Assembly: GCA_964571705.1 (NCBI GenBank)
Contig: CAZNDJ010000001.1
Coordinates: 107,660-171,659, forward strand
Reading direction: 5' to 3'
Length of the DNA: 64,000 nt
Origin: an uncultured Chitinophagaceae bacterium
Lineage (GTDB): Bacteria; Bacteroidota; Bacteroidia; Chitinophagales; LD1
The position numbers were made by a program, and so were the translations under genes. The notes below the pieces were generated by a model. That model was not told the origin of the DNA. It did not search any database and saw nothing but the letters and a program-made list of their open reading frames with translations. This document shows positions 8,774 through 57,002 of the stretch, in pieces; within the stretch, counting starts at the first letter, position 1, and every line of letters begins with the position of its first letter.

Positions 8774-9685
8774 CTATCTCCCTTCTCGTTCTGGATCTTG
8801 GCTCCTTTCATGCTCATCTTTCAACTCCCCATCTAATTCCTTTTCTTCATTAAGGATGTCAGGCTTTCTATCTGCATCTATGGAAGGCTCACCACGGATA
8901 CCGCTTAGTTCGGATGTCCTACGCTCTCTAATATCGAGTTCTTTCATCTTCTCCTCGCCAAAATCTAGAGTTCCGAATCTGTAATGGCGATTGTCATCGA
9001 TTCCCGCCGGCTTGCCTCCCCGCTCGTAGACCTTCAGGCCGCTCTCCTTTAGGTTCTCCAGGAACGCCGTTCTGCTCGTCGCGTTCGCGAAGCTCTGCTC
9101 CAGGAGTGCCCTTATCTCGCCCTTTCGGGAGCCCTTGCCGCTACGGACGACGAGGTTGTGCTCTCGGTCCGTTCTGCCCCTCGTTCCCCTCCCGTGTTCG
9201 ACTTGGGAGTGCGTGAGCCCGAGCTCCACCTCGTAGCGCTGGAGTTCCCTTTTGCAGTCTTGAAACTCCTTCTTGGACATGCGGATGGGCCTGCCGGTAT
9301 ACGCCTCGGTGGCGCTTATCATCAGGTGCAGGTGGACGTGGTTCTTGTCCCAGTGTGCTGCTCCGAAATACAAGGCCTTGTCGCTCCTGAGATCGACGTA
9401 CCTTCTAGCAATTTTATCAAGTACTTCAGGTGTAAGTATTTCTTTGTCACCTGCGCGGTAGGATATGATGTCGTGGTACAGCTTGATTTCACCCTTCCTG
9501 TGCGACAGTCTGCACTTCTCATTGTCCAGGAACTCCTGCACGTTGTCGTCCTTGGTGCGCCCAAGCAGGTTGTGTCGTAAGATGTAGGGCGCGCCGTCCT
9601 TCTTCATGACCGCATCACGGCGGGTTATGTAGTCGGCCAGCTGGCCGAACGAACTAGTTCCCCTCGTGTATGACTTTAGAATCAT
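8774..9685 (-). CDS. Relaxase/mobilisation nuclease (MobA/VirD2-type Relaxase domain)
   Basis: Histidine triad HWDKNHVHLHLMISA (about 9355-9311). The N-terminus MILKSYTRGTSSFGQLADYI is typical of Bacteroidota MobB-like relaxases. Overlaps the upstream gene by 32 nt. Confidence 0.85.
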   Translation of the reverse strand: MILKSYTRGTSSFGQLADYITRRDAVMKKDGAPYILRHNLLGRTKDDNVQEFLDNEKCRLSHRKGEIKLYHDIISYRAGDKEILTPEVLDKIARRYVDLRSDKALYFGAAHWDKNHVHLHLMISATEAYTGRPIRMSKKEFQDCKRELQRYEVELGLTHSQVEHGRGTRGRTDREHNLVVRSGKGSRKGEIRALLEQSFANATSRTAFLENLKESGLKVYERGGKPAGIDDNRHYRFGTLDFGEEKMKELDIRERRTSELSGIRGEPSIDADRKPDILNEEKELDGELKDEHERSQDPEREGR

Positions 9686-10178
9686 TGTCCTTGACTATCT
9701 GCCTGAGCGTCTCAATGAAATTCGGATTGTTTGCAAGGGCTGAGAGTATCTCCTCATGCAGGCGCGGCGGGTTGGAAAATGCGTCGGTCACTTCCTTTGT
9801 CATCTTGGAAAGGGCCTTGCTCAATCCCTCGTAATCCCTGTCTCCCTTGAACCACCCTCCCTTGTCACGGTCCTGCACCTGCTGGATAGTGGCTTGGCAC
9901 CTCAGTAGTGCCTGTAGGATCTGGTCGAGCACTATCTTGTCCCTAACGACGAAGGAGGTGGTGAGGTATGCAAATACCGCCTTCTTGAGGAAGGCGTTCT
10001 CCGTCAGCCTGTGCTCCTTTGCCGTCTTCCTTATTCCTTCGGTTTCGGCCCGCTTGAAGGTCAGGGTATAGTGCCGGTTGCGCCTTCTCTCGGATTGCTT
10101 GTAGGCCTTCATATAGGCACGCCTGTACTCCCGCCTTAGCGCTTTGAGCTCCTCGCCTGAGGCATCTGTCTTGCCCAT
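9654..10178 (-). CDS. MobC-like relaxosome accessory protein (probable ribbon-helix-helix)
   Basis: The segment RRNRHYTLTFKRAETEGIRKTAKEHRLTENAFLKKAVFAYL fits the RHH MobC pattern. Position is between the T4CP and the relaxase. Start trimmed to ATG 10178; the track version starts at 10280. Confidence 0.55.
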   Translation of the reverse strand: MGKTDASGEELKALRREYRRAYMKAYKQSERRRNRHYTLTFKRAETEGIRKTAKEHRLTENAFLKKAVFAYLTTSFVVRDKIVLDQILQALLRCQATIQQVQDRDKGGWFKGDRDYEGLSKALSKMTKEVTDAFSNPPRLHEEILSALANNPNFIETLRQIVKDNDSKVIHEGN

Positions 10179-10222
10179 ATTTTCAAGGTACGCCCACAGG
10201 CCGGATGTTCTTCGCAGGGCTT

Positions 10223-11683
10223 TCAAGGGAGCGTGATTAGCGGTATGGATGGCAGGAGAAGTTGGTTCCGATGGAGCCAAGGAGGCAGGTTCAATTTCCT
10301 TTCGAGCAGCCTCTGCCTAAAATACGGCGTTACGTCTACACGGAGCGGCTTCATCGTCCCTGACAGAATGATGGCCTCGTCGGGCTGCATCAGGCGTATG
10401 TCCTGTGCCAGCATCAGGGGCCGCACCTTTTGACTGCCGCTGCTGTCCACATATTCCTCCTTTCCCAGAAGGTCCTCCAGCTCATGGCTCCCCTTCAGCC
10501 CCATACCGCTGAGGAACACCTTGGTTCTGGAGGCGTCCCTGATGCTGTCCGCGCCCGCCGCCCCGAACTGGTGGACCATTATCTCTTGGCTCTGCCAGAG
10601 GCTCATCACTGGCAATCTATACTTTCGATTATTATTCAATATGTCTGGCAGTGATTCGAAGCGCAGGGTGCCGATCTCGTCGAGGATGAAGAAGACGTCA
10701 AGGTCGCTACTCGATGGCAGCTTAGTCATGAGCTCCTTGAAGGCCAGCTCAAAAAACATTGAGAGGAGCGGCGCATACACTTTGCTGTTCGCGGTAGGGT
10801 TCTCGATGAAAAGCGCGGTCGGGACTTCCCGCATCAATGCGAAGTCGATGTCGTTCGTACAAGTGAGCCTTGCGAGGCCCTCGTCGAACCACAGCCCCAG
10901 CGCGCTCTGCGCGGTAGCTATGACCGACCTCAGCACCTTCTCCTCCATCATGTTGAGCGCCTTCCAGTCCTCGAACAGTTCGGGAGAGCTGTACTTGCAG
11001 AAGAGGCTGTCGAGCGACTCGGGCTTTATCGAGAACCGGTTGAGCAGGTGGCGCACCGAGCTCATGTGCCTTACCTCTGGCTCCTGTGTCATCACGATGG
11101 ATATGAAAATGAAGATCATCGTCTGCGCCTGAAGGAACCAGAAGTTGTCCCCGTTGCCGACCTTGAGGATGCACGAAACCAGGATGTAGGCGACCTTGTA
11201 GGCGTCCGACTTGGTCCTGATGAAATTGAAGGGGTTGAAGCAGTGCGAGGAATCCGGAGCATCGAGCCGCAGCGAAAGAACGCGTACTCCCTTGCTTCTG
11301 AGGTAGGGCGAGACCTTCGCCCGTATCTGCCCCGAAGGGTCCGTTACCACCATGCTTGCGCCCTCTATCATCATGCAGGATGGGAGGGCAAGCGTGGCCG
11401 TCTTACCGGAGCCGATTTGGCCTACGCACATTACGTTCTCATAGGAAGTTTCTCGACTGATCCTTCCCTCGTAGCGGCCCGTGAGGCAGAAGCCCCCGTG
11501 TGATGAGCTGAGAATCTCCCGCTCGTCCCCGAAGGAGGCCCTGTAGGTGCGCATGTCGCGCTCCTCGAAGCTGTCGATTGCGGCAAGCACGTTCCCGACA
11601 AGCGCGTCCACCATCGTGAGCCCGGTCGCGCTCGCGTAGCTCAGGCCTCTCCCAAGGAGCCCTGTTATTCGTTTGGGTTTCAT
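10223..11683 (-). CDS. Type IV coupling protein (TraG/VirD4 family ATPase), no obvious N-terminal TM segment
   Basis: Walker A GQIGSGKTATLALPS (about 11422-11399). Walker B DVFFILDEIG. Mobilisation gene context. Confidence 0.8.
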   Translation of the reverse strand: MKPKRITGLLGRGLSYASATGLTMVDALVGNVLAAIDSFEERDMRTYRASFGDEREILSSSHGGFCLTGRYEGRISRETSYENVMCVGQIGSGKTATLALPSCMMIEGASMVVTDPSGQIRAKVSPYLRSKGVRVLSLRLDAPDSSHCFNPFNFIRTKSDAYKVAYILVSCILKVGNGDNFWFLQAQTMIFIFISIVMTQEPEVRHMSSVRHLLNRFSIKPESLDSLFCKYSSPELFEDWKALNMMEEKVLRSVIATAQSALGLWFDEGLARLTCTNDIDFALMREVPTALFIENPTANSKVYAPLLSMFFELAFKELMTKLPSSSDLDVFFILDEIGTLRFESLPDILNNNRKYRLPVMSLWQSQEIMVHQFGAAGADSIRDASRTKVFLSGMGLKGSHELEDLLGKEEYVDSSGSQKVRPLMLAQDIRLMQPDEAIILSGTMKPLRVDVTPYFRQRLLERKLNLPPWLHRNQLLLPSIPLITLP

Positions 11684-11841
11684 TTTCTTTTACCTAATAG
11701 GAAGGTCCGCACGCCCCGGTTCCACTCCCTCAGGAGGATCTCCGCGCAGGTCGTAATGCACCAAACCGCAAAGAGCACCACTTTTATGAGGGCCATGAGA
11801 ACCTTCCTGCCCAATTCAACAAGTATTTCGCTCCAGGTCAT
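11680..11841 (-). CDS. 53-aa single-TM mini-protein, below the track cut-off
   Basis: Hand translation: MTWSEILVELGRKVLMALIKVVLFAVWCITTCAEILLREWNRGVRTFLLGKRK*. Its ATG overlaps the upstream stop (ATGA at 11838-11841). Its TGA overlaps the T4CP ATG (11680-11683). Confidence 0.4.
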   Translation of the reverse strand: MTWSEILVELGRKVLMALIKVVLFAVWCITTCAEILLREWNRGVRTFLLGKRK

Positions 11842-12554
11842 GGCTGCTCCCTGTTCTCACCCCCTGAAATGACGACCCTTCCGTGGCGTGCCTCGATCAT
11901 GCGCCTGTAGATCGCGCTGACGGCCTCGTACCTCCTCGAATCCTCGTTGTCCCTGGGCTGGTACTCCAGCCGGACCGTCACGCCCGCCAGATCGCCGAGC
12001 GGCTGGATGGAGTCGAAGATCCTCTCCACCGCTTCGGAATGCCTGTAAAGCATCCCCGTATCACGGCGATAGAAGTCGAGGGAATAGTTGAGCTCAAAGA
12101 GGTCAGACGCGGTTTCCAGCTCCTTCTCCGCCGCCCTCTCTTCGGCCAGGGCGTTCAGCATGCGCGCGAAGTGGCGGTAGACCTCGCTGCGCTCCGTGAC
12201 CGCCCCAGACTTCCTGATGTCGCTGAAGCTGCCGTCCACGGTCGAACGGAAAGAGCTTATCAGGGAGTCCCGATCCTGGGGGTTGTCCAGCAGCGGGAAC
12301 CCGACCTCGGGAATTTCCATCCGGATGCTCCGCCCGTATCCCGCCTCGCCGACCGGCGAGACCACCACGATGCCGCCGCGCCACCGGTCGCGGCCGAGGC
12401 CGAGGCTGCCTACCACGTCCCTTGCGCCCGGAAGCAGGACGGCATAGGTGGTGGGGTCCGGCATGTAGTACAGGGCCTTGGTGTTCCGGCCTGCGGACGG
12501 CGCGCATGCGGACAGGGCGACCGACATCATCACCAGCAGTATTTTACTCTTCAT
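11838..12554 (-). CDS. Putative lipoprotein (238 aa), unknown function
   Basis: Start trimmed to MKSKILLVMMSVALSAC (lipobox LSAC). ATGA overlap with the upstream gene at 12551-12554. No recognisable domain. Confidence 0.55.
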   Translation of the reverse strand: MKSKILLVMMSVALSACAPSAGRNTKALYYMPDPTTYAVLLPGARDVVGSLGLGRDRWRGGIVVVSPVGEAGYGRSIRMEIPEVGFPLLDNPQDRDSLISSFRSTVDGSFSDIRKSGAVTERSEVYRHFARMLNALAEERAAEKELETASDLFELNYSLDFYRRDTGMLYRHSEAVERIFDSIQPLGDLAGVTVRLEYQPRDNEDSRRYEAVSAIYRRMIEARHGRVVISGGENREQP

Positions 12555-13573
12555 GGCTCTGGGTTTGAGTTGAGGAATTGATCGTCGTCGAACGAGTCCG
12601 GGTTCCGGGAGATCGCCGCCCGCCTGAACGCCAGTAAGGTCTGGGTCCGGCACTCGCGTATGACGTTCTCGAAGTACTCCCTGCGCGACGACAGCGACGT
12701 AAGGTACCCGCGTCCCTCGCGAAGTTTCCTGATTATCGCATCCCTCTCGTCCGAGAGGGATTTTCTTTTTTTCCTGATCTTATTCAGGCGCTGTTCCATC
12801 AGCCGGTGCTGCCACCTGGCCCGGTAGTCCTCCGCGGTCGGGAGGAGGCAGGCCAGCAGCGTCGCCCCGAAGAAGATCACGCCGGATGCCACGAAGAACG
12901 CCAGGAACGCGATCACCGCCTTCGCCGTGAGGTTCAGTGCGAACCCCATCAGCGCGTAGCTCCTGAGTGCGCCGAACACCGCGAAAACGCACGCCATCCT
13001 GACGGCCCACCGCTTGGCGAACCTCCTCGCGTCCTCCTCCTCCAGCTTCCGGTACTTCCACGCGATGTACCCGCTGGTGATGCCCAGGGACACCGCCACC
13101 GCCGCCCCGATCAGCAGGCATGCCAGGGTCGGCCCCCCGAAGGCGATCAGGCTGTAGCCGTAGAAGGGGATGTCCATCATGAAGATCAGGACCTCGATGC
13201 CCATATGCCACCAGTAGTTGCGCCAGTTGTAGGCCAGGGGCGGCATCCGCCTGGCCTGGTCGTTGCATGAGCGCTCCTCCTCCGCGAACCCGGCATCCGC
13301 CCGGTCGAGCAGTGCGACGTCCTCCGCCGCGGCCCCTTCGAGCGCGGCCTCCCGCCCGGCCTGGTCGCCGCCGCCGAGGCCGGCCCATACCTGCCTGCGG
13401 ACGGCCTCGTACGAGGCCCCGATCCCGACCATGGATACCTTCACATAGGCCGCGGCGCCGTCGCCCTGCGGGACGGCATCGCCGTCGGCTGTGGCATCGC
13501 GATCCAGCCTTTCCCGCTTCCCCTCTATGAACGACATTATCTCCCTGTCCGTACTTTTCTCAGTGATCCTCAT
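12551..13573 (-). CDS. Integral membrane protein: Ala/Asp-rich N-terminus, about 4 TM helices and a basic coiled-coil tail
   Basis: Hydrophobic stretches IEVLIFMMDIPFYGYSLIAFGG, LACLLIGAAVAVSLGITSGYIAW, MACVFAVFGALRSYALMGFAL and VIAFLAFFVASGVIFFGATLLACLL, followed by QRLNKIRKKRKSLSDERDAIIRKLREG. Start is uncertain (13597, 13573 or 13537). Confidence 0.55.
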   Translation of the reverse strand: MRITEKSTDREIMSFIEGKRERLDRDATADGDAVPQGDGAAAYVKVSMVGIGASYEAVRRQVWAGLGGGDQAGREAALEGAAAEDVALLDRADAGFAEEERSCNDQARRMPPLAYNWRNYWWHMGIEVLIFMMDIPFYGYSLIAFGGPTLACLLIGAAVAVSLGITSGYIAWKYRKLEEEDARRFAKRWAVRMACVFAVFGALRSYALMGFALNLTAKAVIAFLAFFVASGVIFFGATLLACLLPTAEDYRARWQHRLMEQRLNKIRKKRKSLSDERDAIIRKLREGRGYLTSLSSRREYFENVIRECRTQTLLAFRRAAISRNPDSFDDDQFLNSNPEP

Positions 13574-14522
13574 ATATCTCAGTTTTGATGTGAACAATGC
13601 TTATATCATTAGTGCCTTCGGAATCGGGAATAGACCTTTTTGGCCTTAAGCGGAGCGCCGCTCCGTTACGCGCAGGTGGGATTTCCGTTAGTCTCACAGG
13701 TGCACCCGGACAGGAGTTGCGACCGACCAGCCAGCCGTCCGCCGTGGTCTCGCAGAACTCCCCTGTCTGCTTTGTATGAATCTGGCCGCCGTCATCATCG
13801 AAACGGACGGAGGCGGCCATGTGGCTTTCCGACGGAATCTCAACCAGCGATGAACGGATGCCTGAAAAGGAGTAAAGCGTGACCAGGAGCACACTCTTCC
13901 CGTCACAGTCCTCTACGCCATCCATCAGGGTCAGCACGGGATAGCGTACGTAATCGTACGGGCCCTCGGGATCGTCAGCATACTGGACTGACTGCACGAA
14001 ACAAAGTAGGTAAGCGGCCCACTGCCTTTGATCGAATTCACAACCAGCCGCGGAATCGCGGAGAACTCTCACCACATAGTCCATGTAGGGGAATGCAGGG
14101 TCCTCGCACGCATAGTCCTCGTAAGGAAGGTCCTTGGGCACGGCATCGTAGTGGTCGTACACGGATACGGGTATCCTGAACGTTGCGCGAAAAGGCCTGC
14201 CTGCGTAGGCCCAATGGAACGTCCTCACGTAGCAGTCCTGCAACCTTTCCTTAGGAAACTCATAGACCCTGATGCAGGAGGTTAAAAGCGCGCTGAAGGA
14301 TAATGCCACAATAAATAGAATGAGCGTTGTGCCGCCCTTCCTCCTCTTTGAGTTCAACGGCTTCACGTCCTCCACGTCCTGCCAGAAGACCTGGTGACCT
14401 GTGTTTAGAGTTTTATAAACTCCACCTCCGTCATTTAAGGGGATTTTCGGTTCATCCGGTTCGTAACGTTTCAATAACCGCTTCAAGGACTCAATCAATG
14501 ACTCATCTTTTTGCCTTCGCAT
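13560..14522 (-). CDS. Membrane-anchored protein with a possible transglutaminase-like/papain-fold Cys-His-Asp core
   Basis: TM segment TTLILFIVALSFSALLTSC. The segment GVEDCDGKSVLLVTLYSFSGIRSSLVEIPSESHMAASVRFDDDG has C..H..D spacing compatible with a transglutaminase-like core. Motif-level only; first gene of the operon. Confidence 0.45.
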   Translation of the reverse strand: MRRQKDESLIESLKRLLKRYEPDEPKIPLNDGGGVYKTLNTGHQVFWQDVEDVKPLNSKRRKGGTTLILFIVALSFSALLTSCIRVYEFPKERLQDCYVRTFHWAYAGRPFRATFRIPVSVYDHYDAVPKDLPYEDYACEDPAFPYMDYVVRVLRDSAAGCEFDQRQWAAYLLCFVQSVQYADDPEGPYDYVRYPVLTLMDGVEDCDGKSVLLVTLYSFSGIRSSLVEIPSESHMAASVRFDDDGGQIHTKQTGEFCETTADGWLVGRNSCPGAPVRLTEIPPARNGAALRLRPKRSIPDSEGTNDISIVHIKTEIYEDH

Positions 14523-15032: not shown

Positions 15033-16544
15033 ATGTCCAGAACTTCCCATCCAATTCCATCTATAACTGCCCTTGTGGCACTTCATGAGTTATACCGGAA
15101 GTGTCATAAAATTCCTCTCAGAAGTAGCATTTCGGAAGCCGCATATATCGATGCAATCAGCAAAGCATTGATTAAGGACAACGTCATTCCGCCTAGTGGA
15201 AACAAACACCTCGTCAATAATTTCTGCTCGAAACCGAATTCCACAGACTACAGAGATGCGCCAGGAATCGACACCCAAAAGTTGGATATCGTCGTAAAAG
15301 TTGTATTACAGGATACAGGACTTTTGGACCAGCCCATGTATAGAAAGACGGACTTCAATATAGATTTCCCCTGGAATAGCTTTAGCCAAATATTCTATCC
15401 CCCACCTCAGTTGTATCGCCTAGAAGAAAAAAAGTATTACAAATTTCTCGAGCCAGAGGATCGCATAATGGTCGATGAGTTCGTAAGATGGAGAATGATC
15501 CATCTGGGACTACTCCAGGATAATTTACTCATTTTTTGTGTCTACCAATCAGGCTCTAATGGTAAGGAGAATAACTTCGGTATATTTGTTATCGATGAAA
15601 GGAAAAGTATTGCATACTACGTACCCTATAGAATATTCGGTGAAAGTCTTATAGATTTCGATTTCTTAACCTTCAAGTCCTATTATTATCAGCATGACAG
15701 AAGTGGGCTTAAAATACATCTTAAGTCCCTATACGAGGGTTTTGGGGAACATCTTCTAATCATGCTCGATATAAGAGATTCGGCGTTATCTACTGAGACA
15801 GTAATTCACGGTTTTAGATGGCAATCATCAGAAAAGGTTTTAATATCAGGTTGCAGTTCAGTAATTCTCGAAAAATGCTCCTCGTACGGAGAAGCGTTCG
15901 TTAGGGTTCGTCATGAAAAAGACGTGAATCCCCTTTTATGCCTTTTGGTAAGAGATAAAAGTCTAGGTTCAACAATTTGGTCGGAAACACAATTTGGATT
16001 GGAGAACCTTAACTTCTTGAAGCGGATTAATTCGTTAAAGGGATGCTACCTAAGTCTAAAGTCTCACCACAATAAAAAAGGATACATCAGAGGTATTACT
16101 ATAATTACGGAGACGGGGTTTGTATGGATGAAAGAGGAAAACGAGCGCATGCCGACCGAAGCCTTTATAGTTAAAGACCAACCATATAACGAGGATTTTT
16201 TCATAGTTATCGACTCTAAAACTCCTAAACTAGAATCTAGAATCTACCTTAAGATGGATATTCTTAACGACTCTATAGAAACCATGTTCGGCTCACGTCT
16301 ACTTCTTAGAAATGGAAACCTCGAAAAAGAAGAGATTGTATTAGTAAAAGTAGATGAAAAGGACTGCACAGATATTGCGTACAGCCATCCGCACCTTAGT
16401 AATAACAGTTTTCAAGACGATTTAATATTACTGGAGCGACGGTTATTGTCTACTAGCTCACGGACGGCAACTACGCGAAAACTGTCAATATATGAAACTA
16501 AAGCCCTAAAGATACTTAAGAAACTTTCTGACTATACTAGCTGA
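15033..16544 (+). CDS. Orphan hypothetical protein (503 aa), AT-rich
   Basis: Long clean ORF starting at ATG. 21/60 G+C in the sample 15601-15660. No motif I recognise. Confidence 0.55.
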   Translation: MSRTSHPIPSITALVALHELYRKCHKIPLRSSISEAAYIDAISKALIKDNVIPPSGNKHLVNNFCSKPNSTDYRDAPGIDTQKLDIVVKVVLQDTGLLDQPMYRKTDFNIDFPWNSFSQIFYPPPQLYRLEEKKYYKFLEPEDRIMVDEFVRWRMIHLGLLQDNLLIFCVYQSGSNGKENNFGIFVIDERKSIAYYVPYRIFGESLIDFDFLTFKSYYYQHDRSGLKIHLKSLYEGFGEHLLIMLDIRDSALSTETVIHGFRWQSSEKVLISGCSSVILEKCSSYGEAFVRVRHEKDVNPLLCLLVRDKSLGSTIWSETQFGLENLNFLKRINSLKGCYLSLKSHHNKKGYIRGITIITETGFVWMKEENERMPTEAFIVKDQPYNEDFFIVIDSKTPKLESRIYLKMDILNDSIETMFGSRLLLRNGNLEKEEIVLVKVDEKDCTDIAYSHPHLSNNSFQDDLILLERRLLSTSSRTATTRKLSIYETKALKILKKLSDYTS

Positions 16545-16602: not shown

Positions 16603-16839
16603 TTAACGCTCAATATCCCTTCGATAAGCCTTTCCTTTGTTTTCCCGAATCTCTTCAAGCTCCCCTAGACGATTTTTCTGCATAGATTTCTCAAACTCCT
16701 CTGCGCCCTCAATGACCCCCTTTTCGTATTCTGTTCCTTTCGTTAGCGCTGGCTTGAGCTTGCCCCAAAGGTCGGGCGTGAACTGGGCGAGCTTGTACCC
16801 GCTGTTGAACCCCTTGATGTATGTCCTATCCTCCTCCAT
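16603..16839 (-). CDS. Small hypothetical protein (78 aa) coupled to the HTH gene
   Basis: Its ATG overlaps the stop of the upstream HTH gene at 16839. Lys/Glu-rich helical sequence. Confidence 0.5.
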   Translation of the reverse strand: MEEDRTYIKGFNSGYKLAQFTPDLWGKLKPALTKGTEYEKGVIEGAEEFEKSMQKNRLGELEEIRENKGKAYRRDIER

Positions 16840-17120
16840 CAGAATGCCTCCCTCTTGTTTTTGCCGATGAATTCAAGCACCGAGTGGCGGTCGAAGAGCA
16901 CCACCTTCCTGCTCACCTGCGAGTAGGCAATCTTCCCTTCCGCCTTCAGCTCCCAGAGGGTCGTGCGGCTCCTGATGTTGAGGAGCTCCATGCACTCATC
17001 GGCGGATATCCAGCGCTCCGCCCTTTCGAGCCTGTACGTGTCGGTGATATGCTCCACGACCCGGTCGAGGAGCTCGTAGAAGGCGTCGGAGTTGAGGCAG
17101 ATGGGTTTCGATGAAGTCAT
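16839..17120 (-). CDS. Excisionase-family helix-turn-helix DNA-binding protein (HTH_17-like)
   Basis: WISADECMELLNIRSRTTLWELKAEGKIAYSQVSRKVVLFDRHSVLEFI matches the MerR-superfamily excisionase-type HTH common in Bacteroidota mobile elements. Start trimmed to ATG 17120; 17144 is TTG. Confidence 0.7.
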   Translation of the reverse strand: MTSSKPICLNSDAFYELLDRVVEHITDTYRLERAERWISADECMELLNIRSRTTLWELKAEGKIAYSQVSRKVVLFDRHSVLEFIGKNKREAF

Positions 17121-17180
17121 AACAAAGGGATGCAGGACACCCAATTTTCCATAACTTCCAGCATTCTTTATTAGGGAGCG

Positions 17181-17194: not shown

Positions 17195-17620
17195 ATGGAT
17201 AAGATTTCCAAAGATAAAAGAAGCTTTGTGATGTCCCGCATTACAAAGAAGGATACCAAACCCGAATTGGTTTTGCGGAAAGCCCTTTTCAGTTTGGGGC
17301 TGAGATACAGGCTGCACGCTCATAAGATGCCTGGAAATCCGGACCTCGTCCTAAAGAAGTACAACACCGTTATCTTCATAAATGGCTGTTTCTGGCATAT
17401 GCACGAGAAATGTAGGCTGGGAAAACTGCCAAAGAGCAATCTAGCTTACTGGGGACCGAAATTGACAGGGAACGTCAGGAGAGATGGGCTAAACTATCAA
17501 AAACTGAGAGAACTTGGGTGGAGAGTGCTCATAGCATGGGAATGCGAAATCAAGCAGGCTCCCCAAACCGTGGCGCATAGGATATATACAGCGCTTGAAT
17601 CAGGGGCTCCCTCAATTTAG
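17195..17620 (+). CDS. vsr: Very short patch repair endonuclease
   Basis: Collinear with E. coli Vsr: MSRITKKDTKPE..PGNPDLVLKKYNTVIFINGCFWHMHEKC..YWGPKLTGNVRRD..LRELGWRVLIAWECEI. Confidence 0.9.
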   Translation: MDKISKDKRSFVMSRITKKDTKPELVLRKALFSLGLRYRLHAHKMPGNPDLVLKKYNTVIFINGCFWHMHEKCRLGKLPKSNLAYWGPKLTGNVRRDGLNYQKLRELGWRVLIAWECEIKQAPQTVAHRIYTALESGAPSI

Positions 17621-18436
17621 CTTCGCCTCGCACCATGCGGCCGTCTCCGTTAAGAGGTCCTTGGGAATCCTCTTGCTACAGTCTGCATGTATTCGATACA
17701 GCCGAGCGCGATCAATTAGGACACCGAACTTGTCCGCGTACTTACGCCACTTGTCCGGATTGACTATCTGGGTCGTTATCATTGATGGGACCGTTGTTTC
17801 GTAATTCCAATTTATATAGTGGTTCCAAGTGGGAAGGGAGATGGGGCTCTTTTCCTTCCAATCATCACCTGCGCCGCACTGCGCAAGAATGATAATTTGG
17901 CTCGATCGAACATCATTAAAAGGGGTCCAGGAAATGACGTCCACTGCGCTGTCCTTCTCGTCGTAATGCGGAGTTATGCCACCCCGTGTTTCGTGCATAA
18001 GCCCCGCCACACTATCCAAGGATGTATTCAGAGCTGCCCCTACAGGGAAACCGAGATGGTAGGTCTCCGAGCGGAAGAATTCCTTAAGCAATACGTTGCC
18101 TATCTGCTCGAAAAGCCTAGTGCCTACATCACCTCTGGTTTGTACCCCGTACGTAGAAAAAATCAGACAGAGCGTGTACAGAGGGTTTGCCCTCCACTTG
18201 ATCCTAGGCCTGATGGTGACCCCAGAAACCTCCACAGGCGACTTTGGGCCATACAATTGAATCCGCCTCGCCAACTCCCCGAGGACGTCATCCATCTTGC
18301 TTTCGAGGTCAATCCCGTCCTCGTCAAACAGGTTCTGCACCTTCATCTTGGAGATGCTTTTGTTTTCCGTAATTACATAAAGCTCCACCCAATCGGATAC
18401 GGTCCTTACGCTTATGCTGTTAGGAAAAGGGATCAT
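17612..18436 (-). CDS. Uncharacterised 274-aa protein, last gene of the dcm operon; possible nuclease
   Basis: Starts 4 nt after the ParB-fold gene stop. The segment DSAVDVISWTPFNDVRSSQIIILAQCGAG is reminiscent of the Mrr-type D..(Q/E)xK core but lacks the Lys. The functional call is weak. Confidence 0.4.
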   Translation of the reverse strand: MIPFPNSISVRTVSDWVELYVITENKSISKMKVQNLFDEDGIDLESKMDDVLGELARRIQLYGPKSPVEVSGVTIRPRIKWRANPLYTLCLIFSTYGVQTRGDVGTRLFEQIGNVLLKEFFRSETYHLGFPVGAALNTSLDSVAGLMHETRGGITPHYDEKDSAVDVISWTPFNDVRSSQIIILAQCGAGDDWKEKSPISLPTWNHYINWNYETTVPSMITTQIVNPDKWRKYADKFGVLIDRARLYRIHADCSKRIPKDLLTETAAWCEAKLN

Positions 18437-18440
18437 GTGT

Positions 18441-19625
18441 TTAGAAATTTTTCTTCAGTTCCTCCGCGGCCAAAATCACGGTATCTACGAGTTGGACCAT
18501 TTCTTTGGACTTGTGCTTGTACGCTATGCTCATCGCGCTTTCCAACTTTTTACGCGCATCGTTTATCCTCTTTACCAGCATATCCTTTTCGCCGTCGCAC
18601 CTGTCGTATGCACCCTCGAAGTCTCCATTTGCAATTAAGTAGTCGGTCGCCTCCTCGCTTAGGAGGATCTTTCCCAGATTCGGGATATGCCTTGAATCGG
18701 TGAACAGGGGCTGGATATTCTTCTTTTTGTTACCATATATCCAAGTGAGTACGCGCTCCAATTCTTCGTTCTTATTGCTAGGGACGACACGCTTAGTAAA
18801 ATCAATCTTCTTATGGAAACTGGCATCATCACCTAAGCCTATATATCTTCTTATGCCTGGTGCGCGGATCGCTACCTCGATAAGGGAAAAATTCCTCCTG
18901 ACAGGCTCCACGTCGAAGTCCAAGTCGCTCTCTACAATTTTAGAAAGGCGGTAATAGAAGTAGTGTTTTATGACAGTATCGGACCTCCTCAGTGCAACCT
19001 GCTTTTGCACGTCTTCGAAGGCTGCACCGTAGTCCTTCTTGCGCTCATAGATTTCCTCGATCCTCTTGGACACGTAAAAGACTCTTGGATAAAAGTCCCA
19101 CTTTTTCGATCCGGAAATGTGCCTAACCCCCAGATAGGGCGTTACCTCGTTGCGATTCTCATAAAATATTGCAGGTATCTGTGCAAGATCCTTAAGCGCG
19201 GCAGCCGATGCACGCGGGAAATCCGTGGAAACTCCGACCTGCTTCCTAATAGAGGCATCAGTTAAAATCTTTAGAGTTGCCGTCCTCCGATTTCCCTCTA
19301 CCACCGTAAGCTGAATCTCTCCCTTGTTGATGAGGCTTTGCAGGTAAGTCTGCTGCTGCTCGATGTCTTTCGGCAAGGCGAAACCCTTCGGCTTGGTCTT
19401 CGGCACGACGACTATAGGCTCCTCGTCAAAATAGCCGTTTTCGGCCATGGAAAAGGCGAGTTCCTCAATGTCGAAATCCGTATATAACGTGTCCAACAAA
19501 TCGAGTTGCGTGGCCGCCTTTCCGTCCTTGGCAAGACGCGGGTTTTCGGAATCGAGATTCAAAAGCGTAACGGGGACATTAAGCTGGGGGCGTTTCCTTC
19601 CTTTACCCGCTATCTCTTTCGCCAT
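18441..19625 (-). CDS. ParB/Sulfiredoxin-fold N-terminal domain protein (394 aa)
   Basis: LNLDSENPRL and TVVEGNRRTATLKIL (GNRR at about 19295-19284) correspond to ParB N-terminal box I/II-like motifs. The long helical C-terminal part has no motif I recognise. Confidence 0.65.
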   Translation of the reverse strand: MAKEIAGKGRKRPQLNVPVTLLNLDSENPRLAKDGKAATQLDLLDTLYTDFDIEELAFSMAENGYFDEEPIVVVPKTKPKGFALPKDIEQQQTYLQSLINKGEIQLTVVEGNRRTATLKILTDASIRKQVGVSTDFPRASAAALKDLAQIPAIFYENRNEVTPYLGVRHISGSKKWDFYPRVFYVSKRIEEIYERKKDYGAAFEDVQKQVALRRSDTVIKHYFYYRLSKIVESDLDFDVEPVRRNFSLIEVAIRAPGIRRYIGLGDDASFHKKIDFTKRVVPSNKNEELERVLTWIYGNKKKNIQPLFTDSRHIPNLGKILLSEEATDYLIANGDFEGAYDRCDGEKDMLVKRINDARKKLESAMSIAYKHKSKEMVQLVDTVILAAEELKKNF

Positions 19626-19680
19626 TATTATTGATTTATTGTAATGTAATAATAGCGAAAAAAGAAGTAAACCTCAGTTA

Positions 19681-21012
19681 CTATGCTAATGCCCTTACAG
19701 CCGGCACTGTGTGAAGTTCCATCGTGGCAGCCAATTGCTGGGCCTCTTGAATTAATTGGCTCGCGATTATCCTAACGATTTTGGAATTGACGGCGTTACC
19801 CAAGGCGCGAAACGCCGCGTTGTCGTTTACAGGAAGGGTCAAACCTTCCAATGACTGTAACCTTTGGCCCTCCTCCCTTGTTATATATCTATCTTGCCAG
19901 CCAATAATCGGAATTTGCGTGTTGGTGCATACAAGCGAAGGAAAGAAATCTACCTTCTTTACACGGATACCTGACGCCCTGAACTGAATAATATATTTTT
20001 TTATTATCCTTTCCCCCTCCCCCACGTTCCATTCGAGCTTCTGCCAACTCTGAGAGGGGTATTTCGAGAGTTGCTTAACCACGTCCTGAACGTGCATTTT
20101 ATTATCCTGATAAAATTCCCTGTTTAATCTTATATACTTCCTTTTCCATGCGGGAAAGGCCTTTTTTACGCGCGCGTAGCTTGGCAGGTTATCTATCTGC
20201 AGCGACTTAGGCATGCCCTTCAGGCTAATGCCGAAATTCCCCCGGAATCCCCCCAGATCGTTAGCCGACAACTTGGTTGGGAAACCTTGCTCATACGGAT
20301 ATGTCGCGCCGAACTCCATTCCCCAGATGGGAAATCCAGGGAGTTTAGTGTCGGCGGGAATCTGAGAAATAAACTGCTGCCACAATTCAAGACACCTTTG
20401 ATTAGCTGCCGGAAGACCGCGAAACCTTTGGGGATTCAAGTCGATGAAACTGTGTATGTCAACGACGCTGTCTTTATGCTCATTTATGATATCAAAGCTG
20501 AAGTGGTCCAGCCCCTCTGTGCATCCGACAATGAAAACCCTTTCCCTATGCTGCGGCACTCCGAAATCCTGCGGCGAATACACCTCATGGTCAACCTCGT
20601 AGCCCAATTCGATCAGTTCTGCCTGCATCTGATTCCATGTCTCCTCGTTATCATGCTGCCGGATAAAGGGCACGTTCTCCAATATGAAATACTTGGGCCT
20701 GCGATGTCGAAGTACTTTTACTATCTCGTCAAATAATGTGCCCCTATCTTTATCGTTCCGCCCAGCCTGTTTGCCTGCTTTTGAGAACGGCTGGCAAGGA
20801 AAGCCAGCGCACAAAATGTCGTGTGGCGGTATTTGGTCTATGTTTTCGTCAATAACCTTTCTGATATCGCCGTGAGGCATAACCCCCCAATTTTCAGAGT
20901 ACGTATGCCTCAACACCTGATCAACCTCACTTGCGAAGACGCATTGATGACCGAGTTCATGGAGCGCCTTATGAAATCCGCCCAACCCCGCAAATAAGTC
21001 TATAAATCTCAT
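19681..21012 (-). CDS. dcm: DNA (cytosine-5)-methyltransferase
   Basis: Motif I FIDLFAGLGGF, IV GFPCQPFSKAG (PCQ about 20799-20791), VI ENVPF, VIII QHRERVFIVG and X GNAVN, in canonical order. The variable region between VIII and IX/X is long (about 230 aa). Start trimmed to ATG 21012. Confidence 0.9.
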   Translation of the reverse strand: MRFIDLFAGLGGFHKALHELGHQCVFASEVDQVLRHTYSENWGVMPHGDIRKVIDENIDQIPPHDILCAGFPCQPFSKAGKQAGRNDKDRGTLFDEIVKVLRHRRPKYFILENVPFIRQHDNEETWNQMQAELIELGYEVDHEVYSPQDFGVPQHRERVFIVGCTEGLDHFSFDIINEHKDSVVDIHSFIDLNPQRFRGLPAANQRCLELWQQFISQIPADTKLPGFPIWGMEFGATYPYEQGFPTKLSANDLGGFRGNFGISLKGMPKSLQIDNLPSYARVKKAFPAWKRKYIRLNREFYQDNKMHVQDVVKQLSKYPSQSWQKLEWNVGEGERIIKKYIIQFRASGIRVKKVDFFPSLVCTNTQIPIIGWQDRYITREEGQRLQSLEGLTLPVNDNAAFRALGNAVNSKIVRIIASQLIQEAQQLAATMELHTVPAVRALA

Positions 21013-21110
21013 TATCCCCTCTTGTTCAAATCGGCAATTTATGGAATTTCCGCCAACAAACCGGAGAATGGCGAAAGTCACATAGTCACTTACTTGCAAC
21101 ATACTTGCAA

Positions 21111-21155: not shown

Positions 21156-21232
21156 TGGTGGTCCCGCCTGGGATCGAACCAGGGACCCTCTGATTATGAG
21201 TCAGATGCTCTAACCGTCTGAGCTACAAGACC
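21156..21232 (-). tRNA. tRNA with CAT anticodon (Met; initiator or lysidine-Ile2 identity not resolved)
   Basis: Hand-folded cloverleaf. Acceptor GGTCTTG/CGGGACC (two G-U pairs), D arm GCTC-AGACGGTTA-GAGC, anticodon arm TCTGA-CTCATAA-TCAGA (anticodon at 21196-21198), T arm CCTGG-TTCGATC-CCAGG, encoded CCA. Confidence 0.9.
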
Positions 21233-29347: not shown

Positions 29348-30283
29348 ATGTCCTACCGCTTTGAAAAGATAAGCCCTGAGCATATAGATGATCTCATATA
29401 CATCTACCGGGATGCTTTTGGCAAAGCTGTAGACCGCAACTACATTTATGGCAAACAGGATACCTCTGCCTTCGGGCCTTCATTTGTAGGTTATATAGCC
29501 TACTCCGAGACGGGTGAGCCGGCGGCATTTTACGGCGTATTCCCATGCCTGCTGGTACTGGATGGCATCAAATATCTGGCAGCACAGTCAGGCGATACCA
29601 TGACGCATAGCAATCATCGTGGCAAGGGACTCTTCACACAACTAGCACTGAAAACATATGACTACTGCCGCGAGAATGGCGTGCATCTGGTTTTCGGTTT
29701 CCCGAATGAAAATTCATACCCGGGATTTGTCAGAAACCTGGCGTGGCAACACTTTGATGATTTTCAGATATACCTCGTGCGTGCTCGCACCCTCACATGG
29801 ACTCGGGTGAAAAGCATGTTTAAGCTCCGCGCCACGATCCATCAGTCCTGGTCACGATTCATCATCAGTCTGTACTCTGTGGGCAAGCCATTTGTCAACT
29901 CTGTGATAGAGCCAGGCATCGGTGGGATAGATCATAGCCCCGATTTTTTCCGCTATAAGGCGTATGAAGAAAAATACCTGGTCAGCATGGCCGGAGTAAA
30001 TGTATGGCTCAAAACAGGGGAAGACTACCTGCATGTAGGCGATATCGAGCGCTGTGATGACCGTACTTTTGACAAAGTAATATCGGGGCTCAAACAGATG
30101 GCCCGACTCATGGGCCTGCCATATGTGCGCTACCAATGCAGCCGGGGAGCGTTTCATGAAGCGGGATTCAGGCGCCATGGTGTCCTTTTTAATAAGACGT
30201 ATCCCATAGGCGGTGTGAACTTTACAAACGTTGTACCTATAAATCAGTTTAAATTTACGATGTCGGACAACGACGGCTTCTAG
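29348..30283 (+). CDS. GNAT-family acyltransferase, two-lobed (311 aa)
   Basis: GNAT motif A-like HRGKGLFTQLALKTYDYC in the N-terminal half. The C-terminal half is unassigned. Confidence 0.5.
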   Translation: MSYRFEKISPEHIDDLIYIYRDAFGKAVDRNYIYGKQDTSAFGPSFVGYIAYSETGEPAAFYGVFPCLLVLDGIKYLAAQSGDTMTHSNHRGKGLFTQLALKTYDYCRENGVHLVFGFPNENSYPGFVRNLAWQHFDDFQIYLVRARTLTWTRVKSMFKLRATIHQSWSRFIISLYSVGKPFVNSVIEPGIGGIDHSPDFFRYKAYEEKYLVSMAGVNVWLKTGEDYLHVGDIERCDDRTFDKVISGLKQMARLMGLPYVRYQCSRGAFHEAGFRRHGVLFNKTYPIGGVNFTNVVPINQFKFTMSDNDGF

Positions 30284-30288
30284 CGCCA

Positions 30289-31329
30289 ATGGGATTTATA
30301 AAGGACAAGGCACTCGGATTTTTTGTCAAAACAAATGGCCTGGTATCTGACCGGATATTTGGTGGCATTGGCATATCATTTATGCTGCATCGCGTGCTGC
30401 CAGCTTCCTTGCGCAATCAATATACTTTCAATCGCGACCTGGCTATCACTCCTGAGCACCTCGAGACTGTGATCGTTTATCTTCGAAAAAAGGGTTGCCA
30501 ATTTGCCTCTATGGACCAACTGCATGAGGTACTGCAGAGTGGACGTAAACCCAAACAGAAATTAGTGTGCCTGACACTGGATGATGGCTATCGAGACAAT
30601 CTGGAGTACGGACTGCCTGTCTTTCAGAAGTATCAGGTACCTGTCACGATCTATGTCACAAATTGTTTCCCAAACCACAATGCAATGCTTTGGTGGTATT
30701 GGCTGGAAGACAAGTTGCAGAAAAATCACCAACTCACCATACAAGCGCCCTCACTTCAAAAGGAATATAAATGGGCTACCCTGCAGCAGGCGGAGACAAT
30801 ATTCCCACAAATACGCACAGAACTCAAATCACTGCCTAAACGCGAGATAACCGACGCGCTGAAAAAGACTTTTGGCAAGGATGATGAAATGATCCAGCAG
30901 GAACTCAGTAAAATCTCCCTGACATGGGAGGAGGTCCGTCAACTCAGCATTGAGCCGCTGGTGACCATAGGAGCCCATACCATGAATCACCTCTCCCTCA
31001 AAACTCTGACTGACGCCGAACTGGAGTATGAGATCACAGCATCCAGGCAGGAACTACAGGCAAAGACAGGAAAAACCATGCTTCACTTTGCCTATCCATA
31101 TGGCACACATGCAGAGGCGCACATACGTGAGTATAAAGCAGCCCGAAGGCATTTCACTACAGCTGTGCTAAACTACCGTGGCAATATCTCTATGGGGCAG
31201 CGCGACTATCAGGAGTGCATACCGCGCATGGCTCTGGCAGAAAGCACGACACCACAGAAACTGGACTACATGCTCAATGGCATCACACACTTTGGCGACA
31301 ATGGATTCACCCAAACTATAAAGTACTGA
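30289..31329 (+). CDS. Polysaccharide deacetylase (NodB-type)
   Basis: LTLDDGYRDN (NodB motif 1) and GAHTMNH (His motif). Confidence 0.75.
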   Translation: MGFIKDKALGFFVKTNGLVSDRIFGGIGISFMLHRVLPASLRNQYTFNRDLAITPEHLETVIVYLRKKGCQFASMDQLHEVLQSGRKPKQKLVCLTLDDGYRDNLEYGLPVFQKYQVPVTIYVTNCFPNHNAMLWWYWLEDKLQKNHQLTIQAPSLQKEYKWATLQQAETIFPQIRTELKSLPKREITDALKKTFGKDDEMIQQELSKISLTWEEVRQLSIEPLVTIGAHTMNHLSLKTLTDAELEYEITASRQELQAKTGKTMLHFAYPYGTHAEAHIREYKAARRHFTTAVLNYRGNISMGQRDYQECIPRMALAESTTPQKLDYMLNGITHFGDNGFTQTIKY

Positions 31330-32333
31330 TGGCTCCAGAACTCTCCATTATCATCGTGCAATACAAGATCCCTGAGCTGCTGGCTCAGTGCATCGACTCG
31401 CTCTATACCCATCGTGGAGATGTAGCCATAGAGGTGATCGTAGTCAATAACGATACGGAAGATATATCCAAAGCTCCCATACTGGCCAGCCACCCCGAGG
31501 TAGTCTGGATAGATGCCGGCTACAACGCCGGTTTTAGCCGGGCCAATAACATTGGTATGCGGAAAGCCAGCGGTGAGTACATTCTGATTTTGAATCCCGA
31601 TACGGAGATCAAAGGAGATTTTCTCCGTCAGTTTATATCATACTATCGCACCAGAGACACAGACGGAAAGCTCGGGCTGCTAGGCTGCAGGATCATCTCC
31701 AGTGTAGATGGCTCTCTGCTGGTAGGAAGCATGAGGGGATTTCCATCTGTAGCTAAGGTAATAGGTGGCAATCCGGTTTACATATACCTGACCCGCAGTG
31801 GCAGTCAGGATAAAAACCAGGACTATGATGCACAAATAATGCACTATACGGATCACGAGATAGACGTAGTGAGCGGTGCATGTGTGATGATCAGACGCGA
31901 AAAGGTGGTTAAGCATAACCTCTATTTTGACGAGGATTTCTTCCTCTACTCAGAGGACGTAGAGTGGGCGCACAGGGTGCAGAAAACCGGATTTAAAAAT
32001 TATTTCTGCTCACAGATAGAGGTCTATCATGTAAACTCTGCCAGCACTGGGTTTTCTGCCGCCAAATCAGCACAGATACAAATATCCGGTTACCTCTATT
32101 ACCTGAAAACCCATATACTTCTAGCCTACCTGTTTTATGGACTGATGTTGTGGGTCAATATGCGGCTGAATATACTGCTGCTTAGCCGTGCAGGAAAGGC
32201 ACAGGACCTGACAGCCGAGCAGGCGCAATACGATGCATTCCGAAGGTACTTTTTCGCTATCTTGAAACAGTATTATTTTTCTCAAACAGCCAGCCGGCCA
32301 TACCTGAAATATGATCCGCAAAATCAGAAATAA
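31329..32333 (+). CDS. Family 2 glycosyltransferase
   Basis: LSIIIVQYK..., VVNNDTED, GYNAGFSRANN and NPDT (DxD-like). ATG 31329 overlaps the upstream TGA (31327-31329). The track start 31215 is an in-frame upstream extension. Confidence 0.85.
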   Translation: MAPELSIIIVQYKIPELLAQCIDSLYTHRGDVAIEVIVVNNDTEDISKAPILASHPEVVWIDAGYNAGFSRANNIGMRKASGEYILILNPDTEIKGDFLRQFISYYRTRDTDGKLGLLGCRIISSVDGSLLVGSMRGFPSVAKVIGGNPVYIYLTRSGSQDKNQDYDAQIMHYTDHEIDVVSGACVMIRREKVVKHNLYFDEDFFLYSEDVEWAHRVQKTGFKNYFCSQIEVYHVNSASTGFSAAKSAQIQISGYLYYLKTHILLAYLFYGLMLWVNMRLNILLLSRAGKAQDLTAEQAQYDAFRRYFFAILKQYYFSQTASRPYLKYDPQNQK

Positions 32334-56028: not shown

Positions 56029-56094
56029 TTTAGCGGGGCGGTGGGGCGATGAAGATAGCAAAGGTGGCCCTATTTAGCGCATAGCGATACTCTG

Positions 56095-56820: not shown

Positions 56821-57002
56821 TTGTTTTTCGACTGGAGGGTGGGTGATATGTGTGCTAGCTGCATGTGTAGTTTGTTGTGCCTGTGTGGGTCTGCGGGGGT
56901 TGGGTTTTGTAAGTTTTTGGGTGGGGGATTATCCTCAGTTTTGTGGATAGGTCGTCTGTGCATTATTGGCTTATTTTGCATATATTCGCAATCTGTATTA
57001 AC

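Follow-up and report, generated by a model that had tools for sequence, protein, structure and literature searches.

The locus described here raises the question of whether a DNA cytosine methylase gene, two adjoining genes and a convergent vsr gene make up a restriction-modification (R-M) system, and what could serve as its restriction arm. The four genes lie in a 64,000-nucleotide (nt) stretch of contig CAZNDJ010000001.1 from an uncultured Chitinophagaceae bacterium (hereafter the window). They encode the C5-cytosine DNA methyltransferase (C5-MTase) Dcm, a 394-amino-acid (aa) ParB/Srx-fold protein, a 274-aa protein and Vsr. An earlier reading of this DNA without database searches (the sequence-only reading) proposed that the two middle proteins may act together in a non-canonical R-M or defense module. 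The present analysis combined profile searches, structure prediction and a census of related loci. We concluded that the cassette is probably an uncharacterized R-M variant that is gated by a nucleoside triphosphate (NTP).

Results

Gene calls in the cassette

The coordinates, gaps, vsr overlap and motifs given in the sequence-only reading were all reproduced by the list of open reading frames (ORFs) and their translations (Table 1). The spacing between dcm and the 394-aa gene is 55 nt (19626–19680), and that between the 394-aa and 274-aa genes is 4 nt (18437–18440). The vsr and 274-aa genes are convergent and have 9 nt in common (17612–17620). All four genes have full-length homologues elsewhere and are, therefore, real genes and not chance ORFs. 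The dcm reading frame is open to 21102 (19681–21102), and an internal Met at 21012 yields MRFIDLFAGLGG. Since Dcm homologues begin at the equivalent Met (MNFIDLFAGLGG and MKFIDLFAGLGG, pattern M(R/N/K)FIDLFAGLGG), we took 21012 as the start of dcm.

Linkage and spread of the 394-aa and 274-aa genes

A pattern scan with the 394-aa family, using one genome per species, returned 80 loci. These loci were analyzed by simple ORF calling and with hidden Markov models of both families, and the Dcm and Vsr of the window were used as queries. Seventy-three loci were assessable, as 900 nt or more of sequence follow the ParB-fold gene in them. Co-occurrence of the two genes with a C5-MTase across genomes had been suggested as a test of the original proposal. 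As for the pair itself, a 274-aa homologue directly follows the ParB-fold gene on the same strand in 70 of the 73 loci. The other three have an ORF of ~332 aa directly after the ParB-fold gene. The median intergenic distance within the pair is −4 nt, an ATGA-type overlap, which suggests translational coupling. Pairwise identities of the 394-aa proteins correlated with those of the 274-aa proteins (r = 0.85, all-against-all, Mantel test). Judging from these comparisons, the two genes form a unit.

The loci come from more than 10 phyla. Carriers among metagenome-assembled genomes (MAGs) belong to Bacteroidota, Ignavibacteria, Planctomycetota, Acidobacteriota, Nitrospirota, Chloroflexota, Saccharibacteria, Zixibacteria, Gemmatimonadota, Alphaproteobacteria and Woesearchaeota, and also include a cyanobacterial symbiont. 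Cultured carriers are strains of Flavobacterium, Chryseobacterium, Hymenobacter, Mesoflavibacter, Formosa and Winogradskyella. A 5.9-kb contig (L076, 535–5872) holds two pairs arranged tail-to-tail.

Association with DNA methylases

A DNA methylase was found in 70 of the 73 loci. A C5-MTase is adjacent to the pair in 44 loci, mostly in the order ParB-274-dcm, and is located within 6 kb in 10; an N6_N4 MTase overlaps the end of the pair in 16 loci, which belong to a distant clade with 26–28% identity. The general definition of R-M, namely, a DNA methylase linked to a nuclease-containing component, applies to 70 of the 73 loci and to three methylase types. The proposal of a non-canonical R-M or defense module is strengthened by this linkage, which involves C5 or N4/N6 methylases and, in addition, a phage C5-MTase. 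The sequence-only reading also named two outcomes that would speak against the module, a lack of conserved co-occurrence of the three genes and a match of either protein to a characterized type II restriction endonuclease (REase) family. Co-occurrence was very strong, and sequence searches gave no such match for either protein.

Identities of each pair protein correlated with those of Dcm at r = 0.28–0.29 only (Mantel test); the methylase is, therefore, exchanged between lineages. The pairs of L027 and L030 are 80–83% identical and their Dcm proteins 52%; in L021 and L058, Dcm is 89% identical and the pairs 35–37%.

In four loci (L005, L008, L023 and L029, at about 5100–13400), the pair is inserted between HATPase_c_3 and Z1 in a dcm-HATPase_c_3-Z1-DUF4420 operon. 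In L001/L009 and L016/L018, it abuts such an operon convergently. The pair is, thus, beside or inside a Z1 operon in at least seven loci; L001 and L009 are one contig, and L016 and L018 seem to be near-duplicates. These operons employ the same Dcm subfamily, and the arrangement is a recurring composite in which two restriction-like arms use one methylase. Because of this placement inside or beside the Z1 operon, the pair behaves as a module able to share a methylase with another restriction-like machine. The window itself was ruled out as a composite of this kind: HATPase_c_3, Z1 and DUF4420 genes are absent, and the ParB-fold gene lies 55 nt after dcm.

Individual loci show further arrangements. 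In Flavobacterium noncentrifugens (L028, 3356–7737), the pair adjoins a 691-aa MTaX1-Mrr_N-GmrSD_N protein and two C5-MTases in divergent orientation. The locus is a defense island, in which a different ParB-type (DUF262) protein accompanies that of the pair. In a Longimicrobiales MAG (L070, 7911–12835), an N6_N4 methylase (10093–11181) stands between the pair and a convergent, genuine PD-Lambda-5_A gene (11435–12835; PADLOC 9e-188, full length). At this locus, a single methylase appears to serve two distinct ParB-fold effectors. The pair of L047 (7992–9979) is located beside leucine-biosynthesis genes and has no methylase within 8 kb.

The 394-aa protein

ParB folds bind cytidine triphosphate (CTP), ATP or GTP, and neither sequence nor AlphaFold3 predicts the nucleotide (2025 survey, PMC12704722). 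The 394-aa protein had no Pfam match, ParB models included, and no NCBIfam match. Searches of the 394-aa and 274-aa proteins against PDB sequences, with single sequences and with profiles, returned noise only. A word-indexed search found more than 548 homologues of the 394-aa protein.

An AlphaFold2 model built from a 103-sequence alignment had a predicted local distance difference test score (pLDDT) of 86. In Foldseek, the N-terminal half of this model matched ParB (CTPγS 7bm8/6t1f; 7bnk), Noc (7nfu) and KorB (8qa8) with probabilities of 0.97–1.0. The ParB-N domain of pNOB8 was also listed with the matches at 0.9–1.0, and Srx was matched at 0.75–0.9. The C-terminal half is all-helical, gave no informative structural match and has no conserved Rx4-6H motif. 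The NPR and GNRR boxes seen in the sequence-only reading are present and invariant among the 103 homologues, as N28-P29-R30 and E110-G111-N112-R113-R114. The EGNRR box (110–114) corresponds to the phosphate-binding Box II of ParB and is also kept in phage homologues, in the distant clade and in PD-Lambda-5_A. By its predicted fold and these boxes, the 394-aa protein belongs to the ParB/Srx superfamily.

The best PADLOC model for this protein was the candidate PDC-M38A (5.6e-15), with residues 105–374 aligned to model positions 88–339 of 715. The match includes the ParB domain and a large part of the helical domain, and it covers approximately one third of the 715-position model. The protein also matched phrog_3694 (6e-52).

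The 274-aa protein

The 274-aa protein had no Pfam (Mrr_cat included), NCBIfam or PADLOC match. Fifty-eight homologues were found in an indexed search, and an exhaustive profile search of the family gave 2,771 clusters at 50% identity (E ≤ 1e-3), 1,974 of them at E ≤ 1e-10. ParB-nuclease fusions were sought among the best 150 representatives of the family, and none was found; all are ~140–330 aa in length.

The AlphaFold2 model (pLDDT 93.1, predicted template modeling score 0.90) consists of an N-terminal winged helix, formed by three helices and a hairpin, followed by an α/β domain. Foldseek matched the α/β domain to MspJI (4f0p, E 2e-4, probability 1.0), FokI, AspBHI and Can2/Card1, as well as to viral models named 'restriction endonuclease' or 'Mrr-like'. 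According to this model, the protein has a restriction-endonuclease-like α/β core.

The sequence-only reading had noted a degenerate Mrr-like D..QxG stretch (DSAVDVISW...IILAQCGAG) and, on account of it, doubted that the protein is a nuclease. The stretch corresponds to residues 162–190 and was correctly placed: D166 precedes the strand 167–171 and Q186 is within the strand 181–188, which is the position expected for the D...(E/Q)xK signature. Residues R58, Y62, E110, E149, D162, D166, C187, G190, K196, D242, R243 and R245 are invariant in the family. The invariant K196 is eight residues past the canonical lysine position (188). E149, D162, D166 and K196, together with the near-invariant Q186, are kept in 56 sequences down to 27% identity, and the motif KD..[LVI]D...Q.[GA].G.....K is kept in gp96 of phage Wphi and in the distant clade. 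The doubt was, thus, justified with respect to the canonical Lys, which is truly missing, but not with respect to the fold, which is a winged helix with PD-(D/E)xK. The predicted fold supports a nuclease with a non-canonical active site.

Relatives in P2-like phages and Escherichia coli

By tblastn against phage genomes, the ParB-fold protein was located in phages of the P2-like group, namely, Wphi (gp98), variants of P2, Yersinia L-413C and HQ103, and vB_EcoM-12474. In Wphi, gp98 is followed by gp96 (phrog_3984), a homologue of the 274-aa family (hhalign probability 96.8%, E 2e-10) that keeps 'D.GLD.IAW...QCG....W..K'. A convergent 312-aa C5-MTase (mth) comes after gp96, and the triad adjoins the portal gene Q. 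PADLOC matched gp98 to PDC-M38A at 9e-25. This triad occupies 29419–32589 of phage Wphi (L085) and 4338703–4341873 of E. coli W (NC_017635.1). At ≥99% identity, it is present in 104 of 5,426 complete E. coli genomes, always chromosomal and in one copy each. PGAP names the three products 'ParB N-terminal domain-containing protein', 'hypothetical protein' and 'DNA cytosine methyltransferase'. The region beside the P2 portal gene Q has been treated as a P2 defense hotspot (Vassallo et al. 2022, PMC9519451).

The same study showed experimentally that PD-λ-5 confers broad anti-phage protection in E. coli (PMC9519451). PD-λ-5 required a host from which mrr had been deleted and has been called a compacted 'RM+Abi' (R-M plus abortive infection) system. 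The 394-aa protein matched many PD-Lambda-5_A models in PADLOC at 4e-12 or weaker, and only over residues ~13–175. The best PADLOC models for Dcm were MTase_II and DruM, and no PD-Lambda-5_B was among the best 25 of 65 matches. Membership in PD-λ-5 was rejected because only the ParB N-domain matches, the effector differs and the genes number three, not two.

Dcm and Vsr

The identities assigned to Dcm and Vsr by eye held, with scores above the curated Pfam and NCBIfam cut-offs. Dcm matched PF00145 at 2.5e-67 (228.1 bits, cut-off 22) and TIGR00675 at 213.9 bits (cut-off 100.65), and its translation contains motifs I, IV, VI, VIII, IX and X as FAGLGG, GFPCQPFS, ENVP, QHRER, TREEGQRLQ and GNAV. 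Vsr matched PF03852 at 5e-32 (110 bits, cut-off 27) and TIGR00632 at 141.6 bits (cut-off 97.85).

The Dcm partners of the pair are one subfamily. Their variable region, which contains the target recognition domain (TRD), has a mean identity of 49% and 2% gaps across 52 loci. Since these regions align almost gap-free, the Dcm partners share a TRD architecture and may, thus, have a similar specificity. A search for the methylated site through palindrome depletion in the 64-kb window yielded only generic CTAG depletion. A vsr gene is present in 11 of the 73 loci and is placed upstream, downstream or between the cassette genes. Vsr is an accessory of the C5-MTase, and its convergent overlap is particular to the window locus and unconserved. 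A scan for sigma-70 promoters and terminators gave counts at the level of shuffled sequence; such a scan is ill-suited to Bacteroidota, the lineage to which the closest homologues point.

Genomic context of the cassette

The positions of the cassette genes and their neighbors are listed in Table 1. The tRNA-Met gene and the dcm start are 144 nt apart, and the 3' end of the tRNA gene points toward the cassette. Because this tRNA gene, an excisionase-like HTH_17 gene, a coupling protein gene and a relaxase gene are nearby, the cassette appears to be cargo at the tRNA-Met-proximal end of an integrated mobilizable element, of which tRNA-Met is the probable integration site. A direct repeat (att) of the tRNA-Met 3' end was sought and not found, and the island boundary is, thus, undefined; no integrase was found. 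The sequence was found only in four DNA runs, which are activated-sludge metagenomes.

Table 1. Cassette genes and neighboring features in the window
Feature	Position	Strand	Basis
vsr, 141 aa	17195-17620	+	ORF list; PF03852, TIGR00632
274-aa winged-helix + PD-(D/E)xK (Mrr-like) protein; proposed nuclease, restriction arm	17612-18436	-	ORF list; AlphaFold2/Foldseek
394-aa ParB/Srx-fold protein; proposed NTP-gated DNA sensor/clamp, restriction arm	18441-19625	-	ORF list; AlphaFold2/Foldseek
dcm, C5-cytosine DNA methyltransferase, 443 aa; modification (self-marking) arm	19681-21012	-	ORF list; PF00145, TIGR00675
tRNA-Met (CAT)	21156-21232	-	ARAGORN; Rfam RF00005, 68 bits
HTH_17 (excisionase/AlpA-like) protein, 101 aa, beside vsr	16839-17144	-	PF12728 4.3e-05, below gathering score
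MobA/VirD2 relaxase	8774-9685	-	PF03432 1.8e-14
ORF without Pfam match	9654-10280	-	
Type IV coupling protein	10223-11683	-	PF02534 1.8e-38

The mobilization genes are part of a GC-rich block (8774–14522; 0.56–0.63 vs. ~0.48 elsewhere) that contains the relaxase, the coupling protein and several ORFs without a Pfam match. The island looks like a mosaic, as this block differs in composition from the adjoining cassette. A 503-aa ORF (15033–16544, + strand, GC 0.39, no Pfam match) is located between the mobilization genes and the cassette and may be further island cargo or another defense gene.

At the left end of the window, one ORF of more than 2,332 aa (3–6998, − strand) with internal repeats ~200–600 nt apart continues past the window end and resembles a giant repeat or adhesin-like protein. 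The first 6 kb are almost free of listed ORFs because this giant ORF runs off the window; the stretch is, therefore, not an anomaly. A low GC content of 0.31–0.32 at 61000–64000 and a GC-skew spike of +0.25 at 56000–57000 may mark another foreign insert or repeat region.

Discussion

We consider it fairly probable that the cassette is an R-M-type defense in which the 394-aa/274-aa pair acts as the restriction arm. Dcm would methylate host DNA at C5 of cytosine and thereby set the self mark. The 394-aa and 274-aa proteins are proposed to assemble as a complex. NTP binding by the ParB fold may gate DNA engagement or the licensing of the nuclease, in analogy with the CTP clamps of ParB and the DUF262 domains of GmrSD, SspE and BrxU. 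The ParB-fold sensor would recruit or license the Mrr-like nuclease, which would cut DNA without the methyl mark. Vsr would mend T:G mismatches arising from the deamination of 5-methylcytosine (5mC) and, thus, keep the mutational cost of the methylase low. The EGNRR subfamily shared with PD-Lambda-5_A, the P2 hotspot, the L028 island and the mobile island of the window point to a defense context. A more specific version of this mechanism, in which the ParB-fold protein is a true NTP (possibly CTP) clamp that loads at unmethylated sites, slides and delivers the Mrr-like nuclease, is less likely than the broad R-M reading, and we put it forward as a tentative idea.

Several observations weigh against the pair as the restriction arm of an R-M system. 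The lysine position of the (D/E/Q)xK signature is occupied by G188 in the 274-aa protein and by Ala in most homologues. L047, L076 and L081 have no methylase within the available sequence. The weak co-evolution between the pair and Dcm is unlike that of a classical sequence-matched REase/MTase pair. In L034 (1368–2907), a vsr gene in convergent, overlapping orientation comes directly after the ParB-fold gene, and there is no 274-aa gene in the remaining 657 nt. Foldseek template modeling scores for the 394-aa and 274-aa models are low (0.2–0.34) because single domains match. Moreover, the census loci were retrieved through the ParB-fold protein alone, and only two methylase queries were used.

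A different possibility is that the pair kills or arrests the cell. In an 'RM+Abi' or toxin system, the ParB-fold protein would sense infection, through phage DNA or methylation interference, and free the 274-aa nuclease on all DNA, that of the host included. The same has been suggested for PD-λ-5, and the weak co-evolution of the pair with the methylase is in line with it, as are the loci where the methylase of the pair can also serve another effector (the Z1/HATPase_c_3 operon, and PD-Lambda-5_A in L070). However, the effector of PD-λ-5 is a HEPN domain, and these are mainly RNases, whereas the effector of the pair has a DNase fold typical of restriction enzymes. A methylase in 70 of the 73 loci is also better suited to self-protection from a DNase. 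We regard such a system as unlikely. It is more doubtful still that the roles within the pair are reversed, with the ParB-fold protein as a nuclease or nickase and the 274-aa protein as a catalytically dead winged-helix subunit for DNA recognition or regulation. DNA nicking does occur in some ParB/Srx proteins. The absence of the canonical catalytic Lys from the 274-aa protein fits this idea, and nuclease activity is known from ParB/Srx members, such as Osa and RK2 ParB (cited in PMC12839542). On the other hand, the conservation of E149, D162, D166, K196 and Q186 to 27% identity, in phage and distant clades, would be odd for a dead site, and the phosphate-binding EGNRR box, a typical feature of NTP switches, is retained in the ParB-fold protein.

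Two further explanations separate the pair from the methylase or from defense altogether. Structurally, the nuclease domain is closest to MspJI/AspBHI, and ParB-type DUF262 domains operate in type IV enzymes; the pair might, therefore, be modification-dependent and attack foreign-modified DNA in the manner of GmrS/GmrD or MspJI, with a functionally independent methylase. A 5mC-directed nuclease co-transcribed with Dcm would, however, kill its host. Furthermore, a winged helix takes the place of an SRA-like 5mC reader in the 274-aa protein, no GmrSD_N or DUF1524 match was obtained, and the methylase, present in 70 of the 73 loci and usually in the same operon, switches its chemistry between C5 and N4/N6 from clade to clade. 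We attach very little weight to a type IV-like activity. A role in the partition, maintenance or regulation of methylase-carrying mobile elements appears just as remote. The copy in the window is on a mobilizable island and orphan ParB folds are common on mobile elements (PMC12704722), but many copies are chromosomal without mobility genes nearby, and the partner has a nuclease fold and is linked to methylases and other restriction genes. No parA was noticed among the inspected neighbor genes, although a systematic search for parA was not part of this inspection. An R-M-type defense with the pair as its restriction arm is, thus, the reading that we retain.

Among experimentally tested systems, PD-λ-5 is the closest to the cassette. 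Both place a methylase beside a protein with the same EGNRR ParB-like N-domain, and both occur in P2-like prophage hotspots. However, PD-λ-5 comprises two genes, and HEPN forms the C-terminal domain of its ParB protein ('ParB/HEPN, methyltransferase'), whereas the window system has another helical C-terminal half and a separate winged-helix/PD-(D/E)xK effector without a PADLOC match. Because the ParB-domain subfamily and the methylase are common to both and the effector is different, the window system is, therefore, a sister of PD-λ-5, with the same methylase dependence and another, separately encoded effector.

A second comparison concerns enzymes that combine a ParB-type NTPase of the DUF262 family with an HNH nuclease of the DUF1524 family, such as GmrSD, BrxU and SspE, in which NTP binding regulates cleavage (PMC12065111). 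They resemble the proposed restriction arm in coupling an NTP-binding sensor of the ParB/Srx fold to a DNase, which can be split into two proteins, as in GmrS and GmrD. In contrast, they target modified DNA (type IV) or sense phosphorothioate without a cognate methylase, and their DUF262 and His-Me domains differ from the EGNRR ParB and PD-(D/E)xK domains of the window system. Membership in GmrSD/DUF262 was rejected because no GmrSD_N or DUF1524 match was found at E ≤ 1 and 70 of the 73 loci contain a methylase.

Classical type II R-M systems with a C5-MTase and Vsr share with the cassette these two proteins, a nuclease-fold gene in the operon and the location on a mobile element. The restriction arm is different in that it would consist of two co-evolving proteins, one with a putatively NTP-binding ParB fold, and neither resembles known REase families by sequence. 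Systems of the CglI/NgoAVII type combine a C5-MTase with an NTPase and a separate nuclease. In contrast to these systems and to the Z1 operon, the putative NTPase of the cassette is of the ParB/Srx fold, as opposed to an SF2 helicase, Z1 or GHKL ATPase. The 274-aa protein is similar to Mrr, MspJI and FokI in having a winged helix followed by PD-(D/E)xK, and its D...Qx- resembles the D...QxK of MspJI and Mrr. However, Gly/Ala takes the place of the lysine in QxK, and there is no SRA or FokI-type recognition domain.

The window system is outside the characterized REase families, PD-λ-5 as defined, and GmrSD. The triad was undescribed in our literature searches (PDC-M38, ParB and restriction, Wphi hotspot), which also gave no mention of PDC-M38, and in the 2025 survey of ParB-CTPase folds (PMC12704722). 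The cassette is best filed as an R-M or methylase-linked defense with a ParB-fold sensor that is widespread and unannotated. Present defense-finding tools would overlook it or call it an orphan methylase.

If the pair is the restriction arm, these loci would represent a large unrecognized class of R-M-like systems, and the ParB nucleotide-switch fold, which is best known in chromosome segregation, would extend to methylation-checked restriction. If the clamp mechanism is true, they would form a new mechanistic class of restriction in which a ParB-type switch takes over the long-range communication that is the task of helicase or translocase motors in type I, type III, ISP and McrBC systems, with PD-λ-5 and the P2/Wphi triad as sister branches that employ other effectors or methylases. 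The R-M reading, if correct, would also provide a mechanistic handle on PD-λ-5, and it could be tested in a model organism. It would account for a recurrent cargo of the P2 hotspot that ~2% of the complete genomes of E. coli carry, among them that of the laboratory strain E. coli W.

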